Positions 8,131-10,255 of a stretch of DNA of 64,000 nt are shown here, one piece after another (within the stretch, counting starts at the first letter, position 1; each line of letters starts with the position of its first letter). The position numbers and the translations under genes were made by a program. A model generated the notes under the pieces. It did not search any database and had not been told where the DNA came from. It was given only the letters and a program-made list of their open reading frames with translations. The DNA is from Marsupella aquatica (taxonomy: Eukaryota; Plantae; Marchantiophyta): the NCBI GenBank assembly GCA_973895155.1, contig OZ316893.1, positions 19,286,857-19,350,856 on the forward strand. The letters are read 5' to 3'.

Positions 8131-8410
8131 GTGAGTCCCGTCAGTTCAGTATGAGCAGCAGCGGAGGCGACAACAAGCTGGGTGAATACTGGAAAAGTCA
8201 TCGCTCCTCCCCTGTGTCACGTTTGGTGAATCCCGAGCTGCATGCGAAGCCCAACAAGCTCGTAGCAGCGTTGGGGACCTTTACGTTTCTGCTCATTGCT
8301 GGTAACCTTGCGTGGACAAAGTACTCTCACGAGAAGAAGTTGGCCAAATCCAAAATCCCGCCCCAACGCCTGGAGAATATCATCGGAGACGATGACTAAC
8401 ATACCTGCAG
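8131..8410 (+). other. Predicted 5'-UTR intron of ABP1 containing the entire SMIM8-like ORF
   Basis: Donor GA|GTGAGT at 8131; branch-point-like GACTAAC at 8394-8400; acceptor CCTGCAG| at 8410 (alternative GTGTTAG| at 8421). Prediction only. Confidence 0.5.
8151..8399 (+). CDS. SMIM8: Small integral membrane protein 8-like (DUF4500), 82 aa, single exon
   Basis: RLVNPELHAKPNKLVAALG followed by one hydrophobic helix (TFTFLLIAGNLAW) and a basic tail; matches the SMIM8 signature recalled as RAVNPELFIKPNKPVMAFG plus TM; intact ATG...TAA. Confidence 0.8.
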   Translation: MSSSGGDNKLGEYWKSHRSSPVSRLVNPELHAKPNKLVAALGTFTFLLIAGNLAWTKYSHEKKLAKSKIPPQRLENIIGDDD

Positions 8411-8450
8411 TACCGTGTTAGCGAGGATTGAGGGCTTAGCACGCCGGGAG

Positions 8451-10255
8451 ATGGGAGGTTTAACAATGGATGGCTTTGTGAAGGTTGTGTTGTATCTGGC
8501 AATTTTCTCACGTTTTAGGATCTCTGCTTCAGCTACGAGTTCTCAGCCGTCTACTGGTAAGCTACCCACCGCCTCCCTGTCTATCCGCATTGAGTTTCAA
8601 AAACTTCATATCTGTTTCCTCCACCCGCTTAACCCCTATTCTCAAGAGACATGCTTTCCTGTGTTTTTTTTTACCAATTTCGTCTTTTCTTGCGTTCTAG
8701 ATGTTCAACTATTCTAGGGAGATTTTAGATATTGGCCGTAGTTTATGTATATCCGAATGTCTACGGCTTTTCTTAGATCATTAATTGATAACTGGCTTGG
8801 TATGATCGTGCTAGATCTGTCTTTATGGTTTTTTTATAAAATGTTATCTATCAGGTGCGACAGTAGTCAGAGATTTGAGCGACACTCATGGAGACAGCTT
8901 TGGAAGGCCCGGATTGTCCCACCTAACAATTGCAGGAGCAGTACTTCATGGCCTGAAAGAGGTAGGGAAACGAGCCTTGGGGTTTTCTGTACGTTTTGAT
9001 TGCTGAGTTGTCCCTCTTTGCAGGAATACCGTGAATAGGCATAGGATTTATGTGCCATATTTGAGTCATATGGCATATCTAGTCAGAGAGAATCTGTTCT
9101 GTGCAAAGATTGGAGTTTTGTGTGAAAGAAAACCCTACATATGCGGTACCTGCTTTCTGAAGTTTCCTTGATTGCTGTTTCTAGCGGTAATCATTTACAA
9201 TAGTGAATGCTGACAGCTATTGTTATAGTGAGTCAATGAGAATTATTGAGGGTCACCACTTATTGTAATGGGCCATTTTTCTCTCTTGTCCACCTCTGGA
9301 TAAAGGAAAAGATCAGTAAGTTTTCATTGTGAAACCACAGATTAGTGCACTCTGGCTTAACTGTCGTTCGTGGACGATGTCTTTTAGGTCGAGGTGTGGT
9401 TGCAAACCTTTGCACCAGGGTCTGGTACACCAGTGCATAAGCATAACTGTGAAGAAGTCTTTTTGATACTGAAAGGCAAAGGAAGTTTGTATTTGGCACC
9501 AAGTTCTGACGCTCAATATCCAGGGAAGCCTCGAGAGTTCAGTGTCCATGCGAACTCGACCTTCACCATTCCTGTGAATGCCGTGCATCAGGTAACCGTG
9601 AATCTGGAGGATGACCTTGACTCGTCCTTGAGAGCATCGTTTTTTTGTTATTTAGGTTCTTCCGTTAGTCAGATAAGTCCACAATTTTCTGGCTCCTGCC
9701 CCCATTTTGAGATAGCTTTTTATAGTGGAACACATGAATGGACTTGGGATTTTGAAGGTTCGTCTCCTGGCATTTTAGCAGATACGGAACACCAACGAAG
9801 ATGGGGATTTGCAACACCTTGCAATAATATCTCGACCTCCAATCAGAATGTAAGTGAAATTTTCTGGCCTGCTTATTGATGGTTTCTTTGCTTGTAATTT
9901 TGATCCATCAACGTTGGTGATCAAGAGGCAAGTCATACTGTCAGGTTATTATGTCTGTTGAATCCGTTTCAGTCTGGATGATGCAATTATCAATATGGTC
10001 TCGAATTAATGAATCAAAGTTGTTGTATTCCACAAATGCTCATTGTCTGGTTGCTATCAGCTGCATCCAGATAGTCATGAAGTGGCATGCTGGCTCATGG
10101 GTTTTACCTTGATTTTCGGCAGATTTACTTACCAAGATTGGTATACTCCGCACGCGGAGGCTCAAGAAGTTTTTCCATATCCTTGGGATGCGGAATTGAT
10201 GTCATCTGCTGAGGGAAAATGTGGAGCATCATTTACTGGGACAGCATTTGGATGA
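8451..10255 (+). CDS. ABP1: Auxin-binding protein 1 (cupin), 5 exons, ~205 aa
   Basis: Exons 8451-8556, 8855-8961, 9388-9591, 9782-9849, 10123-10255 with GT-AG introns and consistent phases (618 nt). Signal-peptide-like N-terminus; [36 protein letters not shown] (box A), IPVNAVHQI (box B), IISRPPI, WYTPH, FPYPWD. Alternative start 8466 has a strong AACAATGG context. Confidence 0.95.

Follow-up and report, generated by a model that had tools for sequence, protein, structure and literature searches.

The window analysed here is a stretch of 64,000 nt from contig OZ316893.1 of the liverwort Marsupella aquatica. Within it, a small ORF (ORF1) for a SMIM8/DUF4500 protein lies on the same strand as, and immediately upstream of, a gene for the auxin-binding protein ABP1 (Table 1). 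A previous sequence-only reading had placed an intact 82-aa ORF at 8151-8399, ending 51 nt before the ABP1 ATG at 8451, and these coordinates were verified, as were the splice-like motifs it described around the ORF (GTGAGT at 8131, GACTAAC at 8394-8400, CAG at 8408-8410 and TTAG at 8418-8421) and the ATG-free stretch before the putative donor, with no ATG found between 7701 and 8150. Two out-of-frame ATGs between the ORF1 and ABP1 starts, at 8242 and 8392, were missing from that reading. Upstream of the locus, a dispersed repeat was detected at 7050-7303 (75-79% alike to a second copy at 54954-55248) and also at 7600-7900, with many partial matches in DNA sequencing runs, and is probably a transposon remnant; the ORFs at 4540-6385 resemble, by eye, the tail of a LINE retroelement reverse transcriptase, with no Pfam match at E 0.01.

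Table 1. Features of the SMIM8-ABP1 locus, in window coordinates. X1 is a sequencing run from a related organism (see text).
Feature	Position	Strand	Evidence and remarks
5' leader, from 8041 at least	8041..8150	+	No ATG; donor-like GTGAGT at 8131-8136, no use seen; X1 record 1 and ATG list
ORF1, 82-aa SMIM8/DUF4500 protein	8151..8399	+	PF14937 match, hydropathy, homologs, dN < dS
Out-of-frame mini-ORF inside ORF1, 7 codons	8242..8265	+	Weak start context (-3 T, +4 C); sequence
Mini-ORF overlapping the ORF1 stop, 9 codons	8392..8421	+	-3 A; ends 29 nt before the ABP1 ATG; sequence
Inter-ORF spacer, 51 nt	8400..8450	+	Two acceptor-like AGs; retained in the relative's spliced contigs
ABP1 coding exon 1	8451..8556	+	Hydrophobic N-terminus, likely signal peptide
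ABP1 exon 2	8855..8961	+	X1 joints, tblastn
ABP1 exon 3, cupin core	9388..9591	+	PF02041, E 2.5e-30; PDB 1LR5/1LRH alignment; metal-site His/His/Glu/His
ABP1 exon 4	9782..9849	+	X1 joints 9591^9782 and 9849^10123
ABP1 exon 5 to stop	10123..10255	+	No KDEL-type ending

ORF1 matched the Pfam profile PF14937 (DUF4500) with 39.5 bits (cutoff 27, E 5.6e-10), and a single hydrophobic helix, predicted to be transmembrane, was located at residues 37-55 (about 8259-8315; mean hydropathy 1.78). Homologs were recovered as 11 matches among 1.84 billion representatives and as 24 of the 1371 candidates in a profile search; those named came from Riccia, Marchantia, Sphagnum, Ceratodon, Physcomitrium, Ceratopteris and Diphasiastrum, and angiosperms were absent from the named homologs of both searches. 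No homolog of the ORF1 locus was obtained from the genome-contig set (0/9 stretches) or the viral-contig set (0/29). In all 10 pairs among five ORF1 sequences dS exceeded dN, with dN of 0.09-0.10 versus dS of 0.78-0.89 between the Sphagnum paralogs, and comparison of the window with mosses gave a pN of about 0.4 versus a pS of 0.71-0.77. Judged from its sequence, ORF1 is a genuine SMIM8/DUF4500 gene on which purifying selection acts. Human SMIM8 (C6orf162), likewise a short single-pass protein with a Pfam match above the cutoff, is assigned to the mitochondrial inner membrane in extracts of MitoAtlas (bioRxiv 10.64898/2026.04.03.716438), and by analogy the same location is predicted for plant SMIM8; no bicistronic context for SMIM8 was found in the literature searched. 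Internal Met residues numbered 0-1 in the ABP1-linked ORF1s versus 2-3 in Marchantia, Riccia and Diphasiastrum and one in Ceratopteris, within a small and related sample. A Physcomitrium SMIM8-like protein (P0224, P0063) has seven internal Met and the cluster representative five; the ABP1-linked copies differ.

ABP1 consists of five coding exons separated by four GT..AG introns and encodes 205 aa, its closest relative being a Calypogeia fissa protein (77% identity at full length and 84% in exon 3; best of 105 matches). The exon-3 cupin core aligned with that of maize ABP1 (PDB 1LR5/1LRH), with which PF02041 is shared, at E 6e-23. The metal-site His-x-His-x3-Glu and a later His are kept, as the window residues are identical at 1LR5 positions 57, 59, 63 and 106, which are the zinc ligands. 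The window protein differs from maize ABP1 in lacking a KDEL and any Cys before exon 3, and in having a coding ORF upstream. Angiosperm ABP1 carries a C-terminal KDEL retention signal, whereas the window protein ends in TAFG, and the Calypogeia homolog likewise has no KDEL; membership of the ABP1 family by profile is unaffected by this. Moss ABP1 proteins end in DELR and DDLR. Maize ABP1 has an N-to-C disulfide; before exon 3 (8451-8961) no Cys is encoded in the window, and one is present in Calypogeia and mosses. The ATG at 8451 has a -3 G and +4 G context and is followed by a second in-frame ATG at 8466.

Five sequencing runs matched the locus, none of them recorded as RNA, and four were aligned (X1, X2, X4 and X5). 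Runs X2, X4 and X5 covered the ABP1 introns and behaved as DNA, X2 being identical to the window and perhaps its source; in X1, from a related organism about 90% alike, the exons were covered and intron depth was near zero. X1 was presumed to be RNA, in part on account of its joints, and represents a relative and not Marsupella aquatica itself. Its first record is unbroken over 8041-8249, crossing the proposed donor at 8131, and its second (1245 nt, depth 96) extends across 8231-8548, past the ORF1 stop and over the spacer, before continuing into ABP1 exons 2-5; three of its joints read GT..AG. A third record, from a more distant homolog, covers 8231-8395, followed by 186 other letters and then ABP1 exons 2-3. 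All of this RNA evidence consists of short-read contigs, in which a span across two genes does not amount to a single transcript. At ABP1 intron 3, a tandem acceptor (TAG CAG, 9776-9781) was seen, X1 splicing at the second AG. Calypogeia ABP1 proteins start at the first ATG; X1 record 2, as read by eye from the listed differences, apparently lacks the ATG at 8451 and keeps that at 8466.

These records bear directly on the splice switch put forward in the sequence-only reading, in which a 5'-UTR intron from the donor at 8131 to an acceptor at 8410 or 8421 would be spliced out together with ORF1 to leave a monocistronic ABP1 mRNA, or retained to yield SMIM8. Donor, branch-point-like and acceptor motifs are all present, and in X1 record 1 no change was listed at 8128-8146, which makes it probable that this record preserves the donor; by eye, from the listed differences, a TTAG like that ending at 8421 also appears to be kept, and record 2 has lost the CAG ending at 8410. 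In random pieces of the window, YAG occurred in 75% and TGCAG in 5% of those 51 nt long, GTRAGT in 5% of those 100 nt long and CTRAC in 10% of those 60 nt long. ORF1 and its adjacency to ABP1 are far beyond chance, the splice-like motifs much less so. Neither of the predicted junctions (8130^8411 or 8130^8422) was among the six X1 joints listed, none of which uses the donor at 8131, and the contigs read through both donor and acceptors, leaving the switch unsupported; in a further X1 homolog, the 30 letters available ahead of 8146 contain no GTGAG. The proposed intron is also exon-like in composition, GC-rich and U-poor (GC 0.53 and T 0.21, versus GC 0.38-0.42 and T 0.34-0.41 in the four real ABP1 introns), and lacks the U-richness of real introns before its acceptors (T 0.22 versus 0.38-0.57). 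Conservation of the splice signals, suggested as a check on the switch, was not observed, as three of the four moss loci checked had no donor: GTRAG was absent within 150 nt upstream of ORF1 in Sphagnum loci L001, L002 and L008, and ORF1 is moreover retained after splicing in Sphagnum (see below for L002), while locus L019 has a GTGAG at -21 relative to ORF1, near the -20 of the window, which is a weak hint in favour. As the main mechanism, removal of ORF1 by splicing is improbable; a rare ORF1-skipping isoform could nevertheless exist, since contigs drop rare variants.

A metagenome scan produced 67 pattern matches, which were resolved into 20 redundant loci representing about three independent units (two Sphagnum paralogs and one other moss). 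The check on conserved adjacency proposed in the earlier reading was borne out in 12 of the 20 loci, where ABP1 or its remnant lies directly behind ORF1 on the same strand (8 intact, 4 decayed), the intact loci being six genomic and two intron-free (L002 and L019). The remaining eight comprised five with a stop-broken small ORF and no ABP1 match, and three with 853 nt or less of downstream DNA. In L002 (Sphagnum, 1437 nt), a complete DUF4500 ORF is followed, after a spacer of 99 nt, by a complete ABP1 whose protein is identical to Sphagnum magellanicum CY35_19G055000. Its comparison with the genomic locus L003 gave six matching blocks, four of the five gaps resolving to GT..AG, and revealed a 284-nt spacer intron starting 56 nt past the ORF1 stop; splicing therefore joins the ORF1 exon to ABP1 and ORF1 is kept. 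Both complete ORFs are also present in L019 (1595 nt), classed as moss-like from its ORF1; they are separated by 312 nt, and the ABP1 has no introns. Seven ATGs fall within its spacer (391-702), which may include a retained intron or an internal start. An ABP1 99% identical to that of L019 occurs on a Logan contig of much the same size (1625 nt).

Accession numbers in four Sphagnum SMIM8/ABP1 pairs differ by 1-2, further supporting adjacency, which was absent from the fern and lycophyte copies seen: the annotated SMIM8 and ABP1 copies are on different chromosomes in Ceratopteris (13 versus 39) and Diphasiastrum (4 versus 6). Sphagnum has, in addition, one ABP1 on chromosome 14 and one SMIM8 on chromosome 18. 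Marchantia keeps SMIM8 (Mp8g18970), and extracts of PMC10783624 report no clear ABP1 ortholog in it. The second Sphagnum-type paralog (L008, L010, L011 and L018) combines an intact SMIM8 ORF with a decayed ABP1 behind it: exon 1 of L008 has an early stop, and the exon remnants of the group are 72-76% alike at the DNA level. Loci L013-L017 have stop-broken SMIM8 copies followed by an L008-like spacer with no ABP1 match, and are likely pseudogene duplicates.

The conserved upstream ORF, likely on the same mRNA, could also be read as a chiefly cis-acting conserved-peptide uORF, which would stall ribosomes and regulate ABP1, its product mattering little in trans. This is very improbable, considering that the family is made up of stand-alone proteins, such as the human inner-membrane protein (MitoAtlas, in extracts), that ORF1 is intact, with dN << dS, before a decayed ABP1, and that SMIM8 persists in Marchantia, which has no clear ABP1 ortholog; its survival in the last two settings indicates that the ORF1 product likely works in trans.

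The two complete ORFs are non-overlapping and on the same strand, with a spacer of 51 nt in the window, 99 nt in L002 and 312 nt in L019, and both were found on spliced contigs in three lineages (the liverwort relative and two mosses). Since spliced RNA assemblies carry both complete ORFs and the pair recurs in mosses, one mRNA likely makes both proteins, and the explanation that we consider probable is a bicistronic mRNA with the SMIM8-like ORF1 first and ABP1 translated as the second ORF. The coupling of both genes in one transcription unit, as claimed in the sequence-only reading, is in this way supported by the X1 contigs and by conservation in bryophytes, and an old bicistronic SMIM8-ABP1 mRNA common to leafy liverworts and mosses is likely. 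Two packed, overlapping transcription units could produce a similar picture if ABP1 started inside or just after ORF1, SMIM8 had its own 3' end and the assembler merged them; the evidence being contigs, the long AUG-rich spacer of L019, which would fit an internal start, and the survival of ORF1 where ABP1 decays (the L008 group) would all agree with this. However, the 51-nt spacer (8400-8450) contains neither AATAAA nor TATA, the X1 records are continuous over ORF1 and ABP1 with no joint or break listed in the spacer, the ORF1 exon of L002 is spliced directly to ABP1 exon 1, and the same merge would need to recur in three lineages, all of which makes separate units unlikely.

Under the bicistronic explanation, transcription would be driven by one promoter located before about 8041, and the first exon of the mRNA would span the leader, ORF1, the spacer and the beginning of ABP1. 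The ORF1 ATG (-3 A, +4 A) would capture the majority of ribosomes, giving a single-pass membrane protein that is predicted to reside in the mitochondrial inner membrane, and ORF1 would consequently hold ABP1 output down; a fraction of ribosomes would bypass ORF1 by scanning, or resume initiation behind it, and begin at the -3 G/+4 G ATG of ABP1, whose product would enter the secretory pathway. Leaky scanning or reinitiation is thus the likely route to ABP1. The ORF1 stop lies upstream of all introns, so that the mRNA would be sensitive to NMD, as described for CDC26-TTM3. A +4 G at ABP1 versus a +4 A at ORF1 was observed in the window, L002 and L019 (3/3), in line with the leaky scanning demonstrated in algal bicistrons (extracts of PMC11892635), although with its -3 A the ORF1 start is not clearly weak. 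AUG depletion between the two starts was not significant in the window (2 versus 4.45 expected, P 0.17) or in L002 (2 versus 3.3 expected, P 0.34), nor in L019 (11 versus 9.6), and scanning through the seven ATGs of the L019 spacer would be difficult, unless an intron makes up some of that spacer or ABP1 has an independent start site. Folding energies between -9 and -23 kcal/mol were computed for the leader and spacer, with no shuffle control.

Among known systems, the Arabidopsis CDC26-TTM3 pair, as described in extracts of PMC11892635, shares with SMIM8-ABP1 a small, conserved, trans-acting first ORF before an unrelated larger second ORF, an arrangement conserved across lineages and an expected link to NMD. 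The genes are different, and CDC26-TTM3, which was shown experimentally, is shared by lineages from algae to angiosperms, whereas SMIM8-ABP1 was seen only in bryophytes and would pair the mitochondrion with the secretory pathway. Green-algal bicistrons (TOM22, OST4, REX1 and LYR-motif pairs; extracts of PMC7896298 and PMC11892635) have in common with it a short first ORF, often for a small organellar protein, a short spacer and a better start context at the second ORF; SMIM8-ABP1 differs in occurring in land plants and not chlorophytes, in showing no significant AUG depletion and in the Sphagnum spacer intron. No SMIM8, DUF4500 or auxin entries were found in the supplements of PMC7896298 and PMC11892635 (seven files each), and no match in the readable supplement files of PMC9305500. 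Within the full-text literature, as distinct from subscription papers and bioRxiv supplements, no description of the SMIM8-ABP1 pair was found in the portions searched, the sole paper with both SMIM8 and ABP1 dealing with mouse uterus. By analogy, SMIM8-ABP1 likely works like CDC26-TTM3 and the algal bicistrons.

Land plants have few well-supported nuclear bicistrons; SMIM8-ABP1, if true, would predate the moss-liverwort split, which took place more than 400 million years ago, and involve a much-debated auxin-binding protein. It would follow that bryophyte ABP1 levels are not readable from mRNA levels, that ABP1 knockouts, insertions or promoter fusions also affect SMIM8, and that ABP1 cDNA constructs without ORF1 likely overexpress; annotation pipelines list ORF1 and ABP1 as separate proteins. 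According to extracts of PMC5469914, auxin promotes reinitiation through TOR. A joint reading for mosses and leafy liverworts, which taken as a whole we hold as a speculative and rather unlikely proposal, is that translating a mitochondrial microprotein ORF would gate the synthesis of ABP1 from the mRNA that carries both, with the ABP1/SMIM8 ratio as a regulated output of scanning, reinitiation, NMD and perhaps a rare ORF1-skipping isoform. In that proposal auxin could, by way of TOR, raise its own binding protein, and the bicistron would be ancestral to setaphytes or land plants, with ABP1 lost in Marchantia and the pair split, or SMIM8 lost, in vascular plants. The bicistron would offer a testable history for the missing ABP1 of Marchantia, whose SMIM8 gene remains, and a first context for plant SMIM8.
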